A stretch of DNA of 24,000 nucleotides from positions 853,013-877,012 of the forward strand of contig CAVRNQ010000007.1 of NCBI GenBank assembly GCA_963722555.1, written 5' to 3'. Below are positions 3,453-20,627 of the stretch, one piece after another. The notes beneath the pieces were generated by a model. It ran no database searches, was not told the origin of the DNA, and saw only the letters and a list, made by a program, of their open reading frames with translations. This stretch comes from an uncultured Acidobacteriota bacterium (GTDB lineage: Bacteria > Acidobacteriota > Terriglobia > UBA7540). The translations under genes were made by a program, and so were the position numbers. Numbering within the stretch: the stretch's first letter is position 1; each line of letters starts with the position of its first letter.

Positions 3453-3618
3453 CCCAGCTTTTCTTGAATTACACTCTGTGGACCAAGCTGGGAGCCACGG
3501 CGCGGTTTTGGCGCCGTGCGCTTGTCGATGGCCAGAACCCGCAAAAGCCCACAGCATAGAAAGCGTGCCGTGCCTACCTACCTTCAAAATCCTCTGGGCC
3601 TGAGGGTGCAGGTTGTAG

Positions 3619-3643
3619 CGCAGACTTGTTTTTGAAGTCTGCG
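3619..3643. other. Perfect 9-bp stem / 7-nt loop hairpin (possible terminator between the higBA and vapBC modules)
   Basis: CGCAGACTT (3619-3627), loop GTTTTTG, AAGTCTGCG (3635-3643). No clear U-tract follows on either strand. Confidence 0.35.
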
Positions 3644-3772
3644 GCCCTTTATCGGGAAAGCAAAGAGCCGCGGAGTTAAAGGGCAACTCCGCGCTACCTG
3701 CTTTGTTGATCCAACGCTCTCGTCGAGGTAGGAATTAGATAGCTTGACTTACATAAATCAAGAGGGTAGGAT

Positions 3773-4030: not shown

Positions 4031-4419
4031 AAACTCACGTCCTTGACGCCAGCGCCCTTATGACATTCTTCGAGGATCGCCCCGGCGCCGGGAAAGTCGA
4101 AGAACTGCTCGCCAAAGCCGCCGAAGCTAAGTGGCCCCTGCTGATGTCCGTAGTCAACTGGGGTGAGGTGTACTACTCGGTCTGGCGCGCGCGCGGCGAA
4201 GCGGCCGCGAACGAGAAGCTCCGTGAGATCGCTCAATTGCCCATCGAGATCGTCGACGCCGACTCCGGCTTGACGCGTGTGGCCGCCAGCCTCAAGGCGG
4301 AGCACAACCTTCCTTACGCCGACTGCTTCGCCGCCGCCCTCGCCCAAGCCAGGAAGGCAACCTTGGTCACGAGTGACAGCGACTTCAAGCGCGTTGGCAC
4401 CGCCCTCAAAATCCTTTAG
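4027..4419 (+). CDS. vapC: VapC toxin (PIN-domain ribonuclease)
   Basis: GTG at 4027 overlaps the vapB TGA (4028-4030). VKTHVLDASALMTFF...WGEVYY...LPYADCFAAALAQARKATLVTSDSDF carries the conserved PIN acidic positions. The 210-aa track ORF (3787-4419) is this frame extended upstream through vapB. Confidence 0.85.
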   Translation: MKTHVLDASALMTFFEDRPGAGKVEELLAKAAEAKWPLLMSVVNWGEVYYSVWRARGEAAANEKLREIAQLPIEIVDADSGLTRVAASLKAEHNLPYADCFAAALAQARKATLVTSDSDFKRVGTALKIL

Positions 4420-4545
4420 GTCTGAGGGTGCGGTGATCCTCGCGAGATGGGGAATCGGCCAACCGCACACATCGCAAGAATCGCGACGTGTGCGCCAGAC
4501 CAATCTCTCACCCTCGGCCTTCAGAGCCTGCCCTATTCGCTGCGC

Positions 4546-4758
4546 TCAGGGCAAGCTCTGAGCGGGGCGAAGGGTCCGCCCTTGTGTCGCTTCCTCTTGT
4601 TTCAGCCGCTCGGCCAGCAGAACCCTGAGCAGCGAATGATAGGGAACATCGCGCTGGTTCGCCAGGGCTTTGAGCCGGGCGATGAGAGCTTCGGGCAAGC
4701 GCCGTGAAATCGTTCGGAGGGAAGGTTTCAGATTCGGCAGGTTTCTGCCGGAGGACAA
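4546..4758 (-). CDS. Ribbon-helix-helix (CopG/BrnA-like) antitoxin, orphan and probably 5'-truncated
   Basis: ISRRLPEALIARLKALANQRDVPYHSLLRVLLAERLKQE is a typical RHH antitoxin C-terminal module. The only possible start is TTG, with no SD and an in-frame TAA 36 nt upstream. There is no adjacent toxin ORF. Confidence 0.5.
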   Translation of the reverse strand: MSSGRNLPNLKPSLRTISRRLPEALIARLKALANQRDVPYHSLLRVLLAERLKQEEATQGRTLRPAQSLP

Positions 4759-4768
4759 GATTTTTTGA

Positions 4769-4796
4769 TTGACAACGTTAACTTATGCGTTATAAT
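4769..4796 (+). promoter_or_regulatory. Near-consensus sigma-70-type promoter TTGACA - 16 nt - TATAAT reading into repeat locus C1
   Basis: TTGACA at 4769-4774, TATAAT at 4791-4796. No protein-coding gene lies downstream on this strand. Confidence 0.55.
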
Positions 4797-4870
4797 ACAT
4801 AGAGTACCGAGCGCCCCGGCTCGATAGAAGCTACTCGGGAGGTAGCCTTGCCCTTGCCACCCACGAAGCA

Positions 4871-4988
4871 GGCAGTAGGCAGAAAGCAGTAGGCACAAGG
4901 CAGTAGGCAGGATGCTGACTCCTGGCTCCTAGCTTCTTACTCCTGACTTCTGACTCCTGATTGCTGAACGCTGAAGGCTGATGGCTGG
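4871..4988 (+). repeat. Simple-sequence blocks (GCAGTAGGCA)n then (CTGACTCCTGA)n of locus C1
   Basis: GGCAGTAGGCAGAAAGCAGTAGGCACAAGGCAGTAGGCAGG at 4871-4911, then GCTGACTCCTGGCTCCTAGCTTCTTACTCCTGACTTCTGACTCCTGATTGCTGAACGC. The 22-mer at 4889-4910 and the 18-mer at 4943-4960 recur exactly, reverse-complemented, at 15665-15686 and 15636-15653. Confidence 0.9.
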
Positions 4989-5027
4989 ACGCCAAGCCCG
5001 CGAGCGTGGAGATTTTGAAAATGTCCA

Positions 5028-5290
5028 GCCTCTCCATTATGTTGATGATAATAAATATACTTAGCGATATTCATCATGATTCTGCAAAATCATCAAGTCG
5101 TTGAAATTAAGCAAGTTAAATGCATTGCGCTGACGTTGGCCTCAGAAAACGCGGGGGGGAAAAATGAAGGTAAGTTCCATTATGTTGTTGAAAACACATG
5201 TAGAAAAAATGTCACTTTGTGGGCTCTCCATTATATTTATGATAATAAACGAGTTATAGTTGCCTCTCCATTATGTTGATGATAATAAAT
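5028..5290 (+). repeat. AT-rich body of locus C1 with dispersed copies of CCATTATGTTGATGATAATAAAT-type motif and a conserved 33-nt core
   Basis: The identical 29-mer GCCTCTCCATTATGTTGATGATAATAAAT occurs at 5028-5056 and 5262-5290. Degenerate copies are at 5174-5197 and 5222-5250. The core AAGTCGTTGAAATTAAGCAAGTTAAATGCATTG is at 5095-5127. G+C is 18/60 in line 5041-5100. Confidence 0.85.
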
Positions 5291-5320
5291 GGAGTTAGCA
5301 GCGATTCTTCATTGCAGAAT

Positions 5321-5390
5321 GGCAGGGCAGGAGGCACAAGGCAGTAGGCAGTAGGCAGAGGGCAGTAGGCAGTAGGCAGAGGGCGGTAGG
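5321..5390 (+). repeat. Second (GCAGTAGGCA)n simple-sequence block closing locus C1
   Basis: GGCAGGGCAGGAGGCACAAGGCAGTAGGCAGTAGGCAGAGGGCAGTAGGCAGTAGGCAGAGGGCGGTAGG, in the same orientation as the 4871-4911 block. Confidence 0.85.
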
Positions 5391-5484
5391 AAGGAGGCGG
5401 CGAGCGCCGTTCGACGCGAACCTACAGAATTTTTGTGGACCACAGCGAGTCAGAGGTGAGAAGCGGCGACGAAATGCAGGAGGG

Positions 5485-6720
5485 TCAGGCGCGGGCGGGC
5501 GGCGGGGCGTCACGCCTGGCCCGGCGCTCGCGCAACTGGGTGCAGATCCAGAGAATCCCGTGCAGGGCAAACCCTGCCAGGAATCCCCACATCAGGTTAG
5601 TGGTAAGTAGCGAGACGAGACCAACCGCAATGGCAATCAGAAGCAGGGACGGGCGCTTGAGGATGTCGCGCACATAGGCGGCGTGCTGGATGCCCACGTA
5701 GACGAGGAACACTCCCAGGACCGCCAGGGGGATCAGGCTGAGCAAGCCGACGGCGGCTCGGCCGAAGAAAGCCAGCAGAAGGCACACGCCGCCAATCACG
5801 TAGCTGGACTTGGGCGTGCGCGCGCCGAAGCGGTAATGCGCCGTGATTCCGCCCGAACCGTGACACAGGGGTGAGCCCATGATCGTGGCGCTGGCCAGGT
5901 TCACGATGCCGATGCTCAAGCTGAGGGCGCGCACCGTGACCCGCCGGGCCTGCACACCATAGAGAATCTGCGCGGTGTTCTCGGTGGCCACAATCGAGTT
6001 TCCGAAGGTCAGGGCAAATTGTGGAATGACGAGCAGGGGCAGGACCCGCTTGAGCTCTGCAACCTGCGGATGAAGCAGTTCGAGCGGCACGAGGCCAAAA
6101 CTCAGCGCCGGGAGTTTGCCCCAGTCGAGCGCCACACCCAAGGCAATTCCCGCGGCCAACAGGACGAGCGCAGCGGGGAAACGGCGTGAATTCCTAAACG
6201 CCAGCAATAATGCGGCCCCGGCGAGGGCGACCAGCCACGGCCCGAGCGCGCCACCGGGAAGAGTCCGCCCCCCCTGCGGCCTGAGCAGCAAGCGGAAACC
6301 CTCGCGCGCCAGCAGCAGGCCCAGTCCCAGTTGAATCCCGCGCACGATCGGCAGGGTGAAGAGCTTGGCCAGCCAGCGCGCGAGATTCGTCAAGCCCACC
6401 AAGAGCAGCAGCGCGCCCATCAGCAGGCCGGCGCTGGCGATGGCGGAGGGCGCGAGCGACAAGGCCAGGGCAATCGCCGCTACCGCCTTCAACGGCTGCA
6501 CGGCAATAGGAATCTGGAAATATCGCGCCGCGATACAATAGGTGAGCCCGGCCGCCAGGAACAGCGCCGTGGGATTAAGGTGGTTCAGAGTGATCAGGGC
6601 GATCGCGAGGGGGAAGAGCACACCGATGTCGCCAAAGGCGCCGGCCACGTCCAGGCGCGTGAGCGGCCAGGCAAACCCTGGTGATTTGGTTTCGGCCGCG
6701 GTGAATGCCGGCAAGCTCAT
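5485..6720 (-). CDS. MOT1-type putative molybdate/sulfate transporter (MFS_MOT1 family)
   Basis: 411-aa polytopic membrane protein. AGAFGDIGVLFPL, IPIAVQPLKAVAAIALA and PLCHGSGGITAHYRFGARTPKS correspond to the duplicated signature motifs of MOT1-family transporters. GGAGG SD lies before the ATG at 6720. Confidence 0.8.
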   Translation of the reverse strand: MSLPAFTAAETKSPGFAWPLTRLDVAGAFGDIGVLFPLAIALITLNHLNPTALFLAAGLTYCIAARYFQIPIAVQPLKAVAAIALALSLAPSAIASAGLLMGALLLLVGLTNLARWLAKLFTLPIVRGIQLGLGLLLAREGFRLLLRPQGGRTLPGGALGPWLVALAGAALLLAFRNSRRFPAALVLLAAGIALGVALDWGKLPALSFGLVPLELLHPQVAELKRVLPLLVIPQFALTFGNSIVATENTAQILYGVQARRVTVRALSLSIGIVNLASATIMGSPLCHGSGGITAHYRFGARTPKSSYVIGGVCLLLAFFGRAAVGLLSLIPLAVLGVFLVYVGIQHAAYVRDILKRPSLLLIAIAVGLVSLLTTNLMWGFLAGFALHGILWICTQLRERRARRDAPPPARA

Positions 6721-7852: not shown

Positions 7853-8884
7853 ATGGGAAAAAAGCAGCGACCTGCGAAGGAGTTGAGGGAGGAATACGAA
7901 ACACTTCTTAACACTGCCTCTCGGTTCAAGAACGAGATTGTAGCACAGATATCTGCAATGGTTCAGAGCGAGGACATCCACCTCGCCGTCCCTATCGAAT
8001 CGCGGGTGAAGAAATGGGACTCCATATCGTCCAAGCTGGATCGACTGCCGTTGAGGGTTGATTCGCTAAAGAATCTACAAGATTTCGTCGGGGTGAGAAT
8101 AATAGTCCTCTTCCGCCGCGACGCGGAAAGGCTCATTCGGTTAATCTCAGAGAAGTTCAAGGTTCTTAAGAGCGAGGACACGAGCACTCGACTCCGTGAA
8201 GACCAGTTTGGGTATCTATCCACCCACATGATCGTAAAGGTTCCTGACGAATGGCTTAAGGTCCCTACCATGTGTTCGCTGGGGGACCTAACAGCAGAGC
8301 TTCAGATCCGGACATTAGCCCAGCATATGTGGGCAGCTGCATCTCATGTGCTTCAATACAAGCAGGAGGCCAACGTCCCGATGCCGGTACGCAGGTCCAT
8401 CCACCGGGTTTCGGCCCTCCTTGAAACCATCGACATTGAATTCGACGGCGTTCTCGACGCCAGAGACAAGTACAGGGCTCAGCTTAGGACAGATACTTCA
8501 GAATCCCTCAATGCTGACTCGCTGGAGCGTTTGCTGGACTCACTCTTCCCCGCAAAGAACAAGGAAGGAACGGAAAACTACTCTGTGATGCTCAAGGAAT
8601 TGTCCGACTTCAAGATTCACACGACTGATGAAGTCGAGCGGTTGGTAAAGAAACACCTGAGGCCCGCGCTGGATGAGGACTCTAAATTCGCCAGTGAATA
8701 CCTCGGGCTTGCCTGGGTCCCCGATTCCAGGAAGGAGAGGATGCGCGAAAAGAGTGTATATTTCACACACGTCGGCCTGCTTAGAACAATAATGAAGCTG
8801 GAGTTTCCAGACGGTTGGCAGGAGTACATGGACAAGCTCGCTGCGTCTGCGAAGGCGAGACCTCGCAAGGCTGAGAAAGAGTGA
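7853..8884 (+). CDS. RelA/SpoT-domain protein (small alarmone synthetase-like nucleotidyltransferase) with ~140-aa C-terminal extension
   Basis: RVKKWDSISSKLDR, DFVGVRIIVLFRRD, FGYLSTHMIV and ELQIRTLAQHMWAAASHVLQYK are the synthetase-domain motifs. Residues ~205-343 have no motif I recognise. G+C is lower (28/60 and 31/60 in sampled lines) than in the flanking genes (38/60, 34/60). Confidence 0.85.
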   Translation: MGKKQRPAKELREEYETLLNTASRFKNEIVAQISAMVQSEDIHLAVPIESRVKKWDSISSKLDRLPLRVDSLKNLQDFVGVRIIVLFRRDAERLIRLISEKFKVLKSEDTSTRLREDQFGYLSTHMIVKVPDEWLKVPTMCSLGDLTAELQIRTLAQHMWAAASHVLQYKQEANVPMPVRRSIHRVSALLETIDIEFDGVLDARDKYRAQLRTDTSESLNADSLERLLDSLFPAKNKEGTENYSVMLKELSDFKIHTTDEVERLVKKHLRPALDEDSKFASEYLGLAWVPDSRKERMREKSVYFTHVGLLRTIMKLEFPDGWQEYMDKLAASAKARPRKAEKE

Positions 8885-13352: not shown

Positions 13353-14773
13353 CAGGACTTTCCCCATTTTTTAGCCTTCCCAAGCCAGCAGGAGTTCCAA
13401 TTGCCAAGTTTTGGGCGGTGGACCGGATGGTTCGGGGCTGGTTTGAGAAAGAACCTTATGGATGCCATCGGCCAGAGCGTAGAAGCGGAAAGGCGGAATG
13501 CCGAAGAAGCGGAAGGAAATGATCAGGAGCCTTTCGCACAAGATTCTCAACTTTAACTTCTGCCCTAAGAAAGTGGCGGCAAAGTAAGCCGCGGCCGTCA
13601 CCAACACCACCAGGTTTTTCAGCCGTTGATAGCGCAGAACGCGAATATCTTCCAAGTGATAGCTCTGTTTGAGGAAGCGAAAAGTTTCCTCAATTTTCCA
13701 GCGGGTCAGATAGATTTGCACGATCCACCATAGCGATTCTGAGTCCCGCGCTCCCTCCAGGTTGGTCAACAGCAGGAGCGGATCTTTCCCGAAACCGGCC
13801 ACCACCACCAAGAGCATCTTCTCCTCTCGCCCCGGCAGGTGCAGGGGTTCGGCACCGTAGCGGAGCTCATAGACCTTTTCTTTCCCCTCTTCGATCTTGA
13901 TCACGCGCGCCGCATAACGCAGACGACACCGGCCACCCACCTCCGCCACACTCCCTTGCAGGCGGCGTCGATCGATCACGAAACGTTTACCGGTGGACCG
14001 GATCACAAAGCGCTCCCGCCGCGCCAGCAGCGGCTCCAACACCTCCCGGCGGTCTCCGCCTCGATCTAGCACCCAGATCCCTCGCCCTCTCGTATGGCTC
14101 CGCACTAAGTCCACGGCCGCCAGAATCTCCGCGTTCTCACTACGGAACTCTTTCGCCTCCGCCGAGTACAGCTTCTGGTACAGCGGCACGATCTCGCTGC
14201 TTTTCACCTCCGCCGCCGTGATGTCACACAACCAATAGCCGTCATGCAGTTCGCCGGTGCTGCCGTCCCGCACCTTTGCCAGGTATTCCATCTTCTGGGC
14301 GTATTCCTTGCGCAGGTCACTCAGGTCCAGGCACAGCACCGTGTTCGCTTCTACTCGTTGACTCCCCAGCGCTGCCAAGCGCTCGCTCAGGTGGCTTTCC
14401 AGTTCCGTCGCCTCCAGATTGCGCGACAGACGGTTCTCCGTCTTGATCAAATCAATCTCTTCTTTCAGGCTGCGCGCGATGTTGCTGAGCTTCACGTCCT
14501 GACTGGCCTGCACGCCAAACAACATCTGACCGACGAACTTCTGTAAGGGGCGGCTCAGACCTTCGGTGAGCTGCAAGGAGAACTTCGTGAGCTGGGCTTT
14601 CAGTCGGGAACGCAGTCTGTTATCGTGCATCGGGGATGCCTCCCAGGTGGTTTGGATTTCTCGCAAAAACCCTTCTACCACGGAGTTCGTCCCCGTTCAC
14701 TTGTTAGAAAAAACAACTCCCGCTGGTTCTATTACTTGCCTGAAATCAGACAGAAAAAATGGGGAAAGTCCTG
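13353..14773 (-). mobile_element. IS4-family insertion sequence, copy A (1421 bp)
   Basis: Perfect 20-bp terminal inverted repeats CAGGACTTTCCCCATTTTTT (13353-13372 and revcomp 14754-14773). Flanking direct repeat AGAAACT at 13346-13352 and 14774-14780. Confidence 0.9.
13371..14630 (-). CDS. IS4-family DDE transposase (copy A)
   Basis: YLTRWKIEETFRFLK carries the Y(2)R(3)E(6)K signature of IS4-type DDE transposases. Start placed at ATG 14630 (MHDNRLRS, GGAGG upstream). The track ORF extends to 14681 from a GTG. Confidence 0.85.
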   Translation of the reverse strand: MHDNRLRSRLKAQLTKFSLQLTEGLSRPLQKFVGQMLFGVQASQDVKLSNIARSLKEEIDLIKTENRLSRNLEATELESHLSERLAALGSQRVEANTVLCLDLSDLRKEYAQKMEYLAKVRDGSTGELHDGYWLCDITAAEVKSSEIVPLYQKLYSAEAKEFRSENAEILAAVDLVRSHTRGRGIWVLDRGGDRREVLEPLLARRERFVIRSTGKRFVIDRRRLQGSVAEVGGRCRLRYAARVIKIEEGKEKVYELRYGAEPLHLPGREEKMLLVVVAGFGKDPLLLLTNLEGARDSESLWWIVQIYLTRWKIEETFRFLKQSYHLEDIRVLRYQRLKNLVVLVTAAAYFAATFLGQKLKLRILCERLLIISFRFFGIPPFRFYALADGIHKVLSQTSPEPSGPPPKTWQLELLLAWEG

Positions 14774-14985
14774 AGAAACTCCGTTGCGGTAGATGGCGAA
14801 TTCATGGGCACAAGTCTGCCGGGCAAGGCCAGGATTCGCAACGCCGAGGTATCCCAATATGTACTGGGGGAAAAAGGTAAGGTTGAAGCCGACAAAGATG
14901 ATGGCGGCGGCCAGACGCGCCCAGCCGCCGGGTGCGAGTAAAACCAGAACAGGTGTTGGAAGAGAATCGGGTCGCCGCCCACCGC
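14774..14985 (-). pseudogene. Cytochrome c oxidase subunit I relic (two out-of-frame fragments with an internal deletion)
   Basis: [17 protein letters not shown] appears in one frame. It joins directly, in another frame, to [20 protein letters not shown], which lies ~110 residues later in intact CoxI. A stop immediately precedes GGDP. The fragment ends at the IS copy A junction. Confidence 0.6.
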
Positions 14986-15026
14986 CTACTTTCCTCGACC
15001 TCGCGCCCAACGCCTTTCTCCTTTCT

Positions 15027-15535
15027 TTTCATCAACATCGCCGCTAACCATAAAAGCGACGCCGATAATGTGTCAAGTCGTGTTGATTCTAAAGGACATC
15101 GCCGGAGTCACTTTCATTTTAACATCTTTTTTGTTTTGCCCGCCAAGCCAGAACTCAATGTAGTTAACTTGTTTGATTTCAACGACTTAATTTTTGTGGT
15201 TGGTCATCATAAAAACCGCTAACTGCCTGTCTTATCATTAACATCGCCGGATGCCTGGCTTTTCTCCAAAATTTCCTGCCCCGGCGCTTGCCGTCGTGTT
15301 GTAGCGCTGGACTTTAGTTCAGCATGTGCCGACCTGAAGGTCGGCGCTACTTCGCCCCGATTATCGCGCCACCGGTGCATTTTCGGCCAAGGAGCCCGAT
15401 CGATTGTCGTCCATTATCGCGAAATCTGTGTATTTTCGGCCAAAAAGCCCATCCGATTGTCGTCCATTTTGTCACCAGCGCCTTTGTTTTCATACACATC
15501 CCCGGGTCGATCTTCATTTTTAACATCTCTATAGG
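15027..15535 (-). repeat. Motif array of locus C2 (reverse-strand copies of CGGCGATGTTGATGAAAAG-type motif, conserved 33-nt core)
   Basis: On the plus strand, TCATCAACATCGCCGC is at 15029-15044 and TCATTAACATCGCCGG at 15235-15250. Weaker copies are near 15097-15106, 15115-15128, 15487-15500 and 15513-15527. The core is at 15156-15188 (revcomp AAGTCGTTGAAATCAAACAAGTTAACTACATTG), 29/33 identical to 5095-5127. Confidence 0.8.
15360..15465. repeat. Two tandem 53-bp units
   Basis: 15360-15412 reads ATTATCGCGCCACCGGTGCATTTTCGGCCAAGGAGCCCGATCGATTGTCGTCC. 15413-15465 reads ATTATCGCGAAATCTGTGTATTTTCGGCCAAAAAGCCCATCCGATTGTCGTCC. Confidence 0.85.
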
Positions 15536-15627
15536 TCAGGGCCCCGTTTCGGACCTTGAAAAGCACACTCGTGAGCCGCCACAATTGGCGCAGGCGGGAA
15601 TCTTCCATCCTCCGCATGAGCATCGCG

Positions 15628-15695
15628 TTCAGCAGTCAGGAGTCAGAAGTCAGGAGTCAGCCTACTGCCTACTGCCTTGTGCCTACTGCCTACTG
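15628..15695 (-). repeat. Simple-sequence blocks of locus C2 (reverse complement of those in C1)
   Basis: TTCAGCAGTCAGGAGTCAGAAGTCAGGAGTCAG then CCTACTGCCTACTGCCTTGTGCCTACTGCCTACTG. It contains the exact reverse complements of the C1 18-mer and 22-mer. Confidence 0.9.
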
Positions 15696-15771
15696 TTCTA
15701 TGGTTTGCGCCGACCCCTTGTATAGGTCTGCGGTCTTGCACGTCAGCCAGCGGGTGCTAGCCTTCCAGTTT

Positions 15772-15799
15772 AGTATAACACGACTCTTAATTTTGTCAA
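15772..15799 (-). promoter_or_regulatory. Near-consensus sigma-70-type promoter TTGACA - 16 nt - TATACT on the minus strand, reading into locus C2
   Basis: Plus-strand TGTCAA at 15794-15799 and AGTATA at 15772-15777. Spacer length and position relative to the simple-sequence blocks match the C1 promoter. Confidence 0.5.
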
Positions 15800-15973
15800 G
15801 AATGAAATTAGCATATCCGCTAATACCTATCAATTAAGACAAAACGTCAGAGATTCCTCCTGCCGGGAGGAGAAAATCTTTTGGGAGGGTGTCTAATTGT
15901 CCGAACTGCGTCCCGCGCTTGCTTATTCCCCTCCTCGTTGAGGAGGGGGCAGGAGGTGGTCGAACAGAGGATC

Positions 15974-16008
15974 GCCATGGTGGTCATTCCCGCGAAGGCG
16001 GGAATCCA
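15974..16008. repeat. 35-bp direct repeat, copy 1 (contains REP hairpin), 16 nt 3' of the GIY-YIG ORF
   Basis: GCCATGGTGGTCATTCCCGCGAAGGCGGGAATCCA, identical to 16434-16468. Confidence 0.9.
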
Positions 16009-16024
16009 AGGGCGAACCATCGCT

Positions 16025-16324
16025 CTACGGCATATGCATCACGGTATGAGACAAGTCCTCCCACCCAGGATTGACCGATTCGATGAGCCTAATCTTCCAC
16101 GCGCGATTCCACTTCTTGAGGCATTTTTCTCTCTGGATCGCATCACGAGGCCGCGCAAAGGATTCGCAATACACCAGCCGATGGACGTTGTACTTCTTGG
16201 TGAAACCCTCCAGCAAACCTTGCTGGTGCTCCCACACCCGGCGCGCGAGATTATTCGTCATGCCGATGTAGAGGGTCCCATTGGGCTTGCTGGCAAGAAT
16301 GTAAACATAATACTCGCGGTTCAT
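16025..16324 (-). CDS. Small GIY-YIG nuclease family protein (COG2827/URI-domain type)
   Basis: MNREYYVYILASKPNGTLYIGMTNNLARRVWEHQQG...REKCLKKWNRAWKIRLIESVNPGWEDL has a GIY-type N-terminus, here EYYVY...LYIG. Start set at ATG 16324. The longer track ORF (to 16447) translates REP hairpins (SFPRRRES). Confidence 0.85.
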   Translation of the reverse strand: MNREYYVYILASKPNGTLYIGMTNNLARRVWEHQQGLLEGFTKKYNVHRLVYCESFARPRDAIQREKCLKKWNRAWKIRLIESVNPGWEDLSHTVMHMP

Positions 16325-16337
16325 CGGATGGTTAGTG

Positions 16338-16360
16338 GATTCCCGCCTTCGCGGGAATGA
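16338..16360. repeat. REP hairpin in inverted orientation, 13 nt upstream of the GIY-YIG start
   Basis: GATTCCCGCCTTCGCGGGAATGA. Confidence 0.85.
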
Positions 16361-16433
16361 CTGCCCCCTAGCCGTGCACCGGCGTATCCTGCCCAAAGCG
16401 AGTGCCCCCTTGCGTGGGTGACACGTCAAGGCA

Positions 16434-16468
16434 GCCATGGTGGTCATTCCCGCGAAGGCGGGAATCCA
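16434..16468. repeat. 35-bp direct repeat, copy 2
   Basis: GCCATGGTGGTCATTCCCGCGAAGGCGGGAATCCA, identical to 15974-16008 and 460 bp away. Confidence 0.9.
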
Positions 16469-18869: not shown

Positions 18870-19206
18870 CGAGCTTGCAGCAAGCGTGCGCGGCGCGGAA
18901 TCCCGGTCTCAAGGGTCACTGGCCCTACTTCTTTCAATCACGCGGCCACGTTCCGCCGGATTTTCGCGAACCACAAGGTGGTAAGCGGAATCGCAATGTT
19001 GCAGGCGATGAGGGTCCAGTAGATGGGGGCGGCAGGGCCGGCAAAAACCACGCGGGGTGAGCTTCTTCGGCCGGCGTTGTACGACGCACGGCCAACTTCC
19101 CAACCCTCATGCGGTAGGAAGGCGAAGCAACCTTCGGCCTGCCCGGCGGGCCTGGGCCTTCCCTTCTTAGGGGAGGTTTGGCCCGGCGTTTTGGGCCGTG
19201 TATTTT

Positions 19207-20627
19207 CAGGACTTTCCCCATTTTTTCTGTCTGATTTCAGGCAAGTAATAGAACCAGCGGGAGTTGTTTTTTCTAACAAGTGAACGGGGACGAACTCCGT
19301 GGTAGAAGGGTTTTTGCGAGAAATCCAAACCACCTGGGAGGCATCCCCGATGCACGATAACAGACTGCGTTCCCGACTGAAAGCCCAGCTCACGAAGTTC
19401 TCCTTGCAGCTCACCGAAGGTCTGAGCCGCCCCTTACAGAAGTTCGTCGGTCAGATGTTGTTTGGCGTGCAGGCCAGTCAGGACGTGAAGCTCAGCAACA
19501 TCGCGCGCAGCCTGAAAGAAGAGATTGATTTGATCAAGACGGAGAACCGTCTGTCGCGCAATCTGGAGGCGACGGAACTGGAAAGCCACCTGAGCGAGCG
19601 CTTGGCAGCGCTGGGGAGTCGACGAGTAGAAGCGAACACGGTGCTGTGCCTGGACCTGAGTGACCTGCGCAAGGAATACGCCCAGAAGATGGAATACCTG
19701 GCAAAGGTGCGGGACGGCAGCACCGGCGAACTGCATGACGGCTATTGGTTGTGTGACATCACGGCGGCGGAGGTGAAAAGCAGCGAGATCGTGCCGCTGT
19801 ACCAGAAGCTGTACTCGGCGGAGGCGAAAGAGTTCCGTAGTGAGAACGCGGAGATTCTGGCGGCCGTGGACTTAGTGCGGAGCCATACGAGAGGGCGAGG
19901 GATCTGGGTGCTAGATCGAGGCGGAGACCGCCGGGAGGTGTTGGAGCCGCTGCTGGCGCGGCGGGAGCGCTTTGTGATCCGGTCCACCGGTAAACGTTTC
20001 GTGATCGATCGACGCCGCCTGCAAGGGAGTGTGGCGGAGGTGGGTGGCCGGTGTCGTCTGCGTTATGCGGCGCGCGTGATCAAGATCGAAGAGGGGAAAG
20101 AAAAGGTCTATGAGCTCCGCTACGGTGCCGAACCCCTGCACCTGCCGGGGCGAGAGGAGAAGATGCTCTTGGTGGTGGTGGCCGGTTTCGGGAAAGATCC
20201 GCTCCTGCTGTTGACCAACCTGGAGGGAGCGCGGGACTCAGAATCGCTATGGTGGATCGTGCAAATCTATCTGACCCGCTGGAAAATTGAGGAAACTTTT
20301 CGCTTCCTCAAACAGAGCTATCACTTGGAAGATATTCGCGTTCTGCGCTATCAACGGCTGAAAAACCTGGTGGTGTTGGTGACGGCCGCGGCTTACTTTG
20401 CCGCCACTTTCTTAGGGCAGAAGTTAAAGTTGAGAATCTTGTGCGAAAGGCTCCTGATCATTTCCTTCCGCTTCTTCGGCATTCCGCCTTTCCGCTTCTA
20501 CGCTCTGGCCGATGGCATCCATAAGGTTCTTTCTCAAACCAGCCCCGAACCATCCGGTCCACCGCCCAAAACTTGGCAATTGGAACTCCTGCTGGCTTGG
20601 GAAGGCTAAAAAATGGGGAAAGTCCTG
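19207..20627 (+). mobile_element. IS4-family insertion sequence, copy B (1421 bp)
   Basis: Same 20-bp terminal inverted repeats as copy A (19207-19226 and 20608-20627). Flanking 9-bp direct repeat GTGTATTTT at 19198-19206 and 20628-20636. Confidence 0.9.
19350..20609 (+). CDS. IS4-family DDE transposase (copy B)
   Basis: Differs from copy A at one residue in the supplied translations (Q vs R; nucleotide 19621 G versus 14359 T on the plus strand). Confidence 0.85.
   Translation: MHDNRLRSRLKAQLTKFSLQLTEGLSRPLQKFVGQMLFGVQASQDVKLSNIARSLKEEIDLIKTENRLSRNLEATELESHLSERLAALGSRRVEANTVLCLDLSDLRKEYAQKMEYLAKVRDGSTGELHDGYWLCDITAAEVKSSEIVPLYQKLYSAEAKEFRSENAEILAAVDLVRSHTRGRGIWVLDRGGDRREVLEPLLARRERFVIRSTGKRFVIDRRRLQGSVAEVGGRCRLRYAARVIKIEEGKEKVYELRYGAEPLHLPGREEKMLLVVVAGFGKDPLLLLTNLEGARDSESLWWIVQIYLTRWKIEETFRFLKQSYHLEDIRVLRYQRLKNLVVLVTAAAYFAATFLGQKLKLRILCERLLIISFRFFGIPPFRFYALADGIHKVLSQTSPEPSGPPPKTWQLELLLAWEG

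Follow-up and report, generated by a model that had tools for sequence, protein, structure and literature searches.

In the 24,000-nucleotide (nt) window analyzed here, which comes from contig CAVRNQ010000007.1 of an uncultured Acidobacteriota bacterium, two non-coding loci lie 10 kb apart in opposite orientation. The first, C1, spans 4733-5445 on the forward strand (~713 bp). On its left is a truncated CopG/BrnA-type antitoxin gene (4546-4758, reverse strand), with a PIN/AbrB pair farther left, and on its right the 3' end of a MOT1-type molybdate transporter gene (5485-6720, reverse strand), whose homologues place the host in the Terriglobia. The second, C2, occupies 15022 to at least 15850 on the reverse strand; it follows a GIY-YIG gene and heads into a coxI relic that is interrupted by a 1425-bp insertion sequence. 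The bounds of both loci were set by homology to copies in other contexts. Both loci are copies, now diverged, of a non-coding module that is undescribed and carries a predicted strong promoter of its own; C1 is the canonical short form and C2 a degenerate long form. An earlier note on the window had proposed the pair as a candidate RNA, peptide or selfish element family; an undescribed non-coding family is indeed present, and the peptide is disfavored, with no codon periodicity in any frame.

Table 1. Parts of C1 and C2 by window coordinate; rows for C2 follow its direction of reading
Feature	Position	Strand	Remark
C1 left-edge hairpin CGGCAG-GTTT-CTGCCG with T-run reaching the -35	4735-4766	+	read from sequence
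C1 sigma-70-type promoter, TTGACA-16-TATAAT	4769-4796	+	12/12 consensus match
C1 5'-proximal stem-loop, ACCGAGC / GCUCGAU	4806-4825	+	
C1 5' heptamer arrays (GGCAGTA)n, (CTGACTC)n, (GCTGAAG)n	4870-4910, 4915-4960, 4963-4987	+	Tandem Repeats Finder
C1 AT-rich body	4988-5312	+	37.8% G+C (4990-5312); homologous to C2 body and all family members
Motif copy 1, GCCTCTCCATTATGTTGATGATAATAAA...	5028-5065	+	repeat family search; nhmmer secondary match
33-nt core	5095-5127 (C1), 15156-15188 (C2)	+, -	29/33 identical
Most conserved block	5151-5213	+	G-run 5153-5159, A-run, ATG at 5164, ~50 nt including motif copy 2 (5171-5208)
31-codon open frame MKVSSIMLLKTHVEKMS..., starting in the block	5164-5259	+	open in all ten aligned members
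Motif copies 3 and 4	5222-5259, 5262-5299	+	51 and 40 nt after preceding copies
C1 3' (GGCAGTA)n array, ~10 units	5326-5398	+	Tandem Repeats Finder
C1 tail, two short G+C hairpins, ending ...GGACCACAG	5399-5445	+	right limit of L012 homology
Hairpin upstream of C2 promoter	15854-15872	-	terminator-like if read on + strand
C2 promoter, TTGACA-16-TATACT, TG preceding the -10	15799-15772	-	11/12 consensus match
C2 5'-proximal stem-loop, GGCUAGC-ACCC-GCUGGCU	15745-15762	-	
C2 arrays, (GGCAGTA)5 then directly (CTGACTC)4-5	15629-15695 (15629-15660, 15660-15695)	-	Tandem Repeats Finder
Long-form insert	15317-15628	-	bracketed by two TGCTGAAC copies (15627-15634, 15317-15324)
C2 AT-rich body	15022-15316	-	core 15156-15188, degenerate motif copies, conserved block largely decayed
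Degenerate heptamers GTAGGCG GTGGGCG at the coxI-relic junction	14975-15021	-	

Shared anatomy of the two loci

Each locus begins with a near-consensus promoter, at the position and with the hexamers that the earlier note had given, and continues through heptamer arrays into an AT-rich body (Table 1). The common order proposed for the two therefore stands, but C2 is not an equal partner in it and is largely without the most conserved block: an nhmmer profile of this block scores 165.6 bits in C1 and recovers only a 30-nt piece of C2 (E = 0.62).

The low G+C content of the bodies had been read from a sampled line and holds for their full extent, since the C2 body (42.4%, 15022-15290) and the C1 body both lie well below the 58.9% of the whole window. 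The two bodies align across ~300 nt, beyond the 33-nt core, whose identity between the loci is as first described. A 25-mer pattern of this core has two matches in the window, with none expected from 100 shuffles. The motif ATGTTNWTGAWAA, earlier seen as degenerate copies, is found three times in C1, twice in C2 and nowhere else in the window; a fuller unit of ~38 nt is present in four copies in C1, and the RNA consensus of ~25 nt reads YCUCUCCAUUAUGUUGAUGAWAAUAAA. The motif spacings of 51 and 40 nt are identical in all ten aligned members of the family described below.

The heptamer arrays were called by Tandem Repeats Finder and contain the strings that had been reported as shared, all of them exact: the 22-mer GTAGGCACAAGGCAGTAGGCAG (4889-4910 and the reverse strand of 15665-15686), the 18-mer CTGACTTCTGACTCCTGA (4943-4960 and the reverse strand of 15636-15653), and TGCTGAACGC, which comes after the 18-mer in C1 and C2 alike. 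Arrays are thus present in both loci, but they are no signature of the module: tandem heptamers occur across the genome in this lineage. Within the family they are the least conserved part, and the unit number of the 3' array of C1 varies among strains. GGCAGTA and CTGACTC are complementary at 5/7 positions, and stop-carrying units block all frames. Two roles were accordingly considered and rejected, namely (i) a conserved hairpin, as the CTGACTC array is missing in L024, L029 and L014 (loci outside the window are cited by L numbers), and (ii) three-frame stops, as the common variants GGCAGAA and GGCAGTG carry no stop. Heptamers of other units occur elsewhere, as inverted pairs (hairpins) around tRNA genes in L012 (8800-9400) and as arrays in L008 (1292-1365 and 7165-7206), where a cysteine-desulfurase (nifS) relic is interrupted.

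The long form differs by an insert of ~300 nt bracketed by TGCTGAAC, found only in C2, L005, L022 and L030. In C2 it contains a first ATGAAG... unit (~15480-15527), a 53-nt tandem repeat (15360-15468) and a G+C hairpin (~15326-15347). The homology of C2 to L005 ends at 15022.

The wider family and its conserved parts

Further copies, which the earlier note had suggested looking for, were found in related genomes and metagenomes. About a dozen distinct copies of 0.7-0.85 kb were recovered from metagenomes, and their hosts are uncultured peat-soil Acidobacteria (Terriglobia). A metagenome scan returned the same locus from a strain of ~93-95% DNA identity (L006, L007, L010), a C1-type copy that is 82% identical with both flanks different (L008, L009, L012), and a C2-type copy, also 82% identical (L005). 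When a 67-codon open reading frame (ORF) called over the body was used as bait against a large protein collection, it returned 31 clusters of ORF calls over such elements, and the DNA behind several of these clusters yielded L020-L032. A profile of the conserved 160 nt (nhmmer) matches 20 loci outside the window strongly and once each, at 135-167 bits; with no more than eight substitutions allowed, the 51-nt core of the block is found in 18 loci outside the window. Members follow one plan: a hairpin with T-run, the promoter, a leader with a 5' stem-loop, heptamers that vary and are sometimes absent, the insert in the long form, and then the body, in which motif copy 1, the core, the block with motif copy 2 and two further copies succeed one another. 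More heptamers follow in C1-type copies.

The element comes and goes between relatives. L014, whose transporter has 91% protein identity to that of the window, carries a degraded C1-type copy at the same place, and no element is found downstream of the orthologous transporter in L015-L019 (87-81% protein identity), so that a given locus may or may not carry the element. A search for the exact transporter protein of the window gave no match. Flanks differ for the same element (window versus L012; L024 versus L025) and break at the same left edge, and both subtypes are kept in more than one lineage. Despite this variation in presence and context, the elements do not qualify as miniature inverted-repeat transposable elements (MITEs) or insertion sequences, for no transposase lies inside them; no terminal inverted repeats were found in C1, L012 or L030. 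We also considered whether C1 and C2 might be the termini of a 10-kb transposon and rejected this, because the intervening genes are conserved chromosomal neighbors in relatives without the elements and not cargo.

The promoter is retained throughout. TTGACA is present in 12 of 13 family members, the 16-nt spacer likewise in 12 of 13 (17 nt in L022) and TAnnnT in all 13; the L005 promoter reads GTGACA-16-TATAGT. Hexamers and spacing are kept in these 13 members while the spacer sequence varies, and even between the window and L010 there are five differences in the 3' half of the spacer, despite 93-95% DNA identity over the locus. The arrangement, with hexamers 16 or 17 nt apart and more conserved than the spacer, is that of a sigma-70-type promoter, for which a spacing of 16-18 nt is expected; it suggests that the hexamers are under selection with the spacer free to vary, and it agrees with the earlier argument for a functional unit.

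Immediately 5' of the -35, L030 and L022 carry a terminator-like hairpin with T-run, and the two hairpin sequences are unrelated. The left-edge hairpin of C1 appears to be a degraded form of this terminator-like insulator, which looks intact in L012, L030 and L022. Past the promoter, a stem-loop of different sequence occupies the equivalent position in C2 and L005; L005 retains the C2-type stem-loop with a change on one side, and L030 retains the 5' stem pairing, where two C-to-U changes yield G-U pairs. Between the CopG/BrnA relic and the element promoter, several relatives contain a ~157-nt module with two G+C hairpins and a 5-codon mini-frame (L010 1493-1649, L014 6186-6336, L025 2053-2198, L027 2025-2181, L030 2591-2698). 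This module, present in relatives, is missing from the window, which marks the left edge of the element as a hot spot for recombination or insertion.

The strongest conservation is in the 62-nt block. Between C1 and L020, L021 or L022 the block is identical at 57-59 of 62 positions (92-95%), compared with only 3-7 of 12 (25-58%) in the adjacent 12 nt, and the sequence upstream of it is unalignable in L021 and L022. There are no indels over ~160 nt across ten members, and the start codon of the block is ATG in nine of them and GTG in L022. Across the body as a whole, the window and L010 differ at 2/325 positions (0.6%) versus 7.0% at synonymous sites of the transporter gene. Where the G-run gives way to the A-run varies from copy to copy (G7A5, G6A6, G10A2) at constant total length, as seen in the window (5153-5159), L010, L012, L014, L029 and L030; this G/A homopolymer may be a slippage-prone site.

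This pattern bears on whether the element has a function at all. A relic in decay, whether of a gene, of an insertion sequence or of a 23S-IVS/four-helix-bundle cassette, set among genome-wide simple repeats and with no function of its own, would be in keeping with the divergence of the window from L014, which is near the synonymous rate, with the visibly degenerate state of C2 and the L014 copy, with surroundings rich in relics and mobile DNA, and with the commonness of heptamer arrays in the lineage. We consider it very improbable, since members that are otherwise unalignable still have the promoter hexamers and the block in common and both subtypes persist in more than one lineage. Moreover, a Pfam search with ten ORFs from C1, C2, L022, L030 and L020 at E <=10 gave only one match, which at E = 0.11 and 13 bits (cut-off 27) is negligible and falls on a domain of unknown function. 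The four-helix-bundle family (PF05635) had no match among the ten ORFs and no such pattern appeared in six-frame translations, so that the decayed gene or cassette named in the earlier note as a possible refutation has left no sign among the ORFs scanned.

Peptide, RNA and DNA readings of the block

The G-run, A-run and ATG of the block resemble a strong ribosome-binding site, which is a point favoring translation initiation. The 29-31-codon frame MKVSSIMLLKTHVEKMS... could then be a small protein or leader peptide, either as the product or as a regulatory upstream ORF, or, in a variant, part of a type I toxin-antitoxin-like locus; every member has the Shine-Dalgarno-like G-run, A-rich spacer and start codon, and none of the ten interrupts the frame. 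Resemblances to the type I toxin mRNAs hok and aapA1 lie in CUCUCC tracts potentially able to cover the Shine-Dalgarno sequence, in paralogous copies, in a toxin-antitoxin setting and in conservation at the nucleotide level. The substitutions, however, speak against such a gene. Minimum changes by codon position number 18, 12 and 14, without excess at third positions, and the other two frames give the same counts rotated; most changes alter the amino acid, and synonymous variation of the amount that the diverged flanks would predict is missing from the first 17 codons. In addition, a second frame is equally open, frame length ranges from 29 to 51 codons among the members read, charged residues are too many for a membrane toxin, and the region holds no convincing antisense promoter, only weak sites with a 9/12 match. 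We therefore regard a peptide gene as distinctly improbable. A 27-codon frame fares no better, with 10/10 changes between C1 and L014 altering the amino acid, and the 67-codon frame is broken by a frameshift in L012, where the same sequence stands on three independent contigs; the three short ORFs and the 67-codon ORF were rejected as real genes by their substitution patterns. In the ORF call P0150, both open frames are fused.

Searches at the level of RNA and of whole elements returned little. With the Rfam 15 covariance models, nothing in the whole window reached the gathering score, 4400-5700 and 14700-16100 gave chance-level matches only (E >=1.1, far below the cut-offs), and L020, L022 and L030 gave nothing at E <=1. 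PADLOC had no match for any ORF of the members, a plasmid scan had none, a phage scan gave one chance match, and literature searches returned no description of the family, in agreement with the earlier view that this is neither a known RNA family nor a locus with recognizable protein features. For the ten aligned members, RNAalifold predicts a weak consensus fold of -6.7 kcal/mol with 15 pairs, and single-sequence folds are mutually inconsistent. None of the pairs is compensatory, so the fold lacks the support expected for a structured regulatory RNA such as a riboswitch, ribozyme or large ornate RNA. The only recurring long-range helix joins the G-run to CUCUCC of motif copy 3; this pairing can form in 8-10 of the ten members, with C/U alternation opposite G.

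A third possibility is that the block and its motifs are read as DNA by a protein, be it at a mobile-element end or attachment site, in a partition or operator array (perhaps bound by the neighboring ribbon-helix-helix CopG-type protein), or in a relic origin. The invariant spacings of 51 and 40 bp and the lack of indels over 160 bp would suit such a platform, as would the sharp left edge that recurs in different contexts, the CopG-antitoxin gene or relic that adjoins the element in the window, L010, L014, L024, L026, L029 and L030, and the lack of covariation in the RNA. The reverse strand of the core, WTTCAACGACTTR, has an A/T-rich 5' side and one mismatch to the IHF consensus WATCAANNNNTTR, which makes it a candidate binding site, and the core itself varies in L014, L020 and L030. 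A motif copy, an IHF-like core and three further copies succeed one another in a layout reminiscent of Mu or Tn7 ends and of phage attP arms. Even so, we judge this reading quite unlikely: in the contexts examined no recombinase, transposase or Rep gene lies alongside the element, terminal inverted repeats are lacking, the genes between C1 and C2 are conserved chromosomal ones, and a strictly conserved promoter with insulator would be left unexplained.

The core 25-mer AAGTCGTTGAAATNAANCAAGTTAA also occurs at three unrelated places. In L001 (2230-2254) it falls between DnaA boxes within the dnaA-dnaN origin region of a Pyrinomonadaceae genome, which was also the one match in a core scan of genome contigs and could be counted in favor of a DNA platform; in L011 (1987-2011) it lies 60 nt upstream of a flagellin gene, and the site in L013 (1112-1136) is on a third contig. 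These stray matches may be chance or a shared protein-binding site. They are few enough for chance, and the pattern also matched phage DNA in AT-rich coding sequence, plainly by chance. Several assignments were dropped: (i) an origin of replication, as the window has no replication genes, the similarity ends at 25 nt and phage DNA matched as well; (ii) a sigma-28 or other alternative promoter, suggested by the flagellin case, as the key CGA of the -10 is absent and the case is single; and (iii) a dif/XerD arm, Fur box or FNR box in the motif, where fits are partial only and AT-rich sequence gives such fits easily.

The genes that follow the element offer a further view of what it might do. The earlier observation that neither promoter leads into a gene holds for both window copies but not for the family, in which the module stands directly upstream of genes in distant relatives. 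A co-oriented gene begins within ~10-230 nt in four distant lineages. It encodes an MR_MLE enzyme in L021, a 3-hydroxyacyl-CoA dehydrogenase in L022, an alpha-L-fucosidase in L030 and, in L020, a secreted protein whose N-terminus looks alpha-glucosidase-like by eye. No terminator-like site was seen from promoter to gene in L020 and L022. A co-oriented fragment of a repeat-type protein gene follows in L024, L025 and L026, and the closer C1-type copies (window/L010, L012, L014 and L027) face various convergent genes.

Based on these observations, we tentatively favor, at slightly less than an even chance, the reading that the family is a portable, insulated promoter and non-coding leader cassette that acts as RNA and whose core is read as nucleic acid. 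The hairpin and T-run would block transcription arriving from upstream, and the near-consensus sigma-70 promoter would fire a few bases past its -10. The RNA would begin with the short stem-loop and the heptamer arrays and pass into an A+U-rich, largely unstructured leader, bearing three to four phased ~25-nt motif copies and the near-invariant block that resembles a strong translation-initiation region. Function would reside in the block and motifs, recognized as nucleic acid: most probably the 30S subunit or an RNA-binding protein would land or bind there. Masking of the G-run by the CUCUCC tracts is conceivable, and the block would set how strongly anything downstream is expressed. The window copies are orphans, and both would yield non-coding RNA: transcription from C1 would continue antisense into the molybdate-transporter gene at its 3' end, and that from C2, a decaying long form, into the coxI relic.

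The same neighbors could be explained by an autonomous, trans-acting non-coding RNA, of which the orphan copies would be the functional ones, for example as a decoy for a ribosome-associated or RNA-binding protein, with the leader motifs of catabolic genes as the regulated targets. Neighbors are about half co-oriented and half convergent, orphan C1-type copies keep promoter and block in several lineages, the A+U-rich, unstructured RNA would carry three to four motif copies, and the genes downstream of the distant members all encode catabolic enzymes. We nevertheless hold such a decoy to be unlikely, if still a serious candidate. Copies close to genes have the entire ~160-nt arrangement in common, in contrast to targets of Csr or Crc; no intrinsic terminator marks a 3' end, no candidate binding protein was identified, and the motif lacks the GGA of CsrA sites and appears to fit ARN/AAnAAnAA only loosely.

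Several points weigh against the cassette as we favor it. First, the orientation of neighbors over all contexts is near random, a pattern as compatible with an autonomous RNA gene as with a leader, and four co-oriented cases are few (chance about 1 in 16). Second, a consensus fold this weak, with no compensatory pair in it, leaves action as RNA a proposal; recognition of the DNA would suit the pattern of conservation equally well. Third, the window and L014 bodies differ at 45/325 positions (14%) versus 15-17.5% at synonymous sites of the transporter; constraint on the body is either local to block and promoter, lost in some copies or blurred by recombination, and the near-identity of the window and L010 could reflect recent recombination and not selection. 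Finally, no mechanism of movement was found: terminal inverted repeats are lacking, and the contexts offered no clean empty site to inspect for a target-site duplication.

Toxin-antitoxin neighbors and known systems

Toxin-antitoxin genes lie beside many copies, often as a CopG-type gene or relic. A promoter followed by tandem units of ~40-51 nt, among toxin-antitoxin and abortive-infection genes, invites comparison with the antitoxin RNA of a type III toxin-antitoxin system, in which a promoter, repeats of ~36-45 nt and a terminator precede an endoribonuclease gene; the element would then be an orphan array whose toxin gene has been lost, or another defense-island RNA. This is hardly probable, because no ToxN, AbiQ, CptN or TenpN-like gene follows in ~10 contexts, the genes that do follow are ordinary catabolic enzymes, PADLOC gave no match, and the 40-51-nt units are not uniform tandem copies.

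A second recurrent sequence was seen in these surroundings. It is ~90 nt long, folds into a single long hairpin (-41.5 kcal/mol), is 87-90% identical in unrelated contexts and has no Rfam match. Its sites are in the window (3614-3703), L008 (1067-1156), L024 and L029 (756-839), L026 (51-134) and L030 (1958-2055), mostly 0.7-1.5 kb from a C-type element with toxin-antitoxin genes between. It could represent another family of repeats or mark the distal end of a toxin-antitoxin island; an integron attC was rejected, as the R' and R'' boxes are absent.

The neighborhood of C1 and C2 is full of relics and mobile DNA. The 1425-bp insertion sequence is present as two 100% identical inverted copies (13353-14777 and 19203-20627) with a 436-residue DDE transposase and imperfect 33-nt terminal repeats, and one copy abuts the frameshifted coxI relic at 14746-15010. 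Palindromic units GTCATTCCCGCGAAGGCGGGAATCCA (15974-16008, 16334-16367, 16434-16468) flank the GIY-YIG nuclease gene (16025-16447, reverse strand) and occur again 15 kb off (825-926). An ORF at 7853-8884 has a RelA/SpoT domain and a match to the PADLOC candidate defense family PDC-S33 (E = 2e-17). Cumulative GC skew peaks near 11.3 kb, roughly midway between C1 and C2, and falls symmetrically after; the peak probably reflects gene orientation.

Among known systems, the family belongs with promoter-bearing intergenic repeats or non-coding leaders, and this specific family is undescribed in Rfam, Pfam, PADLOC and the literature searches. Reused or 'mobile' promoters in prokaryotes are similar promoter stretches found upstream of unrelated genes, within and between genomes (Nijveen, Matus-Garcia and van Passel, PMC3575422). 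The present family shares with them a promoter-bearing stretch in unrelated contexts but is a unit of 0.7-0.85 kb with a conserved long leader, phased motifs and an insulating hairpin, and about half of its copies have no gene to drive. MITEs and promoter-bearing small repeats such as the Correia elements of Neisseria are likewise non-autonomous, present or absent by locus and able to supply a promoter to neighbors, whereas our element has no terminal inverted repeats, is much larger and is internally modular.

Intergenic heptamer repeats without established function are on record, as TAACTGA in Beggiatoaceae (PMC4679880) and as MTYCTGA sites in Geobacter metallireducens (PMC2700814). Like these and the cyanobacterial STRR sequences, the heptamers here form arrays of 3-10 units in intergenic DNA, and the CTGACTC/CTCCTGA unit fits the Geobacter consensus; here, however, the arrays are variable trimming, and it is the promoter and AT-rich block that define the element.

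Two kinds of regulatory RNA locus come closer. CsrB/RsmZ, which act on CsrA, and CrcZ, which acts on Hfq/Crc, resemble the module as promoter-driven non-coding RNAs (here a prediction) with several short motifs that look like translation-initiation regions, and several related copies are possible per genome; the module differs in its motif, which has no GGA in hairpin loops, in lacking a terminator, and in that gene-proximal copies share the whole of it. Type I loci (LDR and SIB of E. coli, aapA/isoA of Helicobacter) are repeats in intergenic DNA, ~0.4-0.5 kb per unit. They have strong promoters and a very short frame, are strongly conserved in nucleotide sequence and contain stretches able to mask the Shine-Dalgarno, and each of these traits has a likeness here, but the predicted peptide of our element is not hydrophobic, no coding signature is present and no convincing antisense promoter was found.

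A bolder reading, which we consider rather unlikely, is a regulatory or selfish system of RNA and DNA only: an insulated promoter module whose A+U-rich RNA would mimic a translation start and capture the 30S subunit or an RNA-binding protein, with orphan copies as decoys for gene-attached ones and spread without a transposase of its own. If true, this would give acidobacteria an analogue of the Csr or Crc circuits with a wholly new motif at its base.

The 62-nt block itself represents unusually tight constraint on a sequence that is neither protein nor folded RNA. Terriglobia are abundant in peat and soil and mostly uncultured, and the control of their gene expression is barely known. The family offers a predicted strong promoter with a putative insulator, ready-made and potentially useful as a genetic part, and its gene-attached and orphan copies are a natural experiment that could reveal a post-transcriptional regulator in this phylum.

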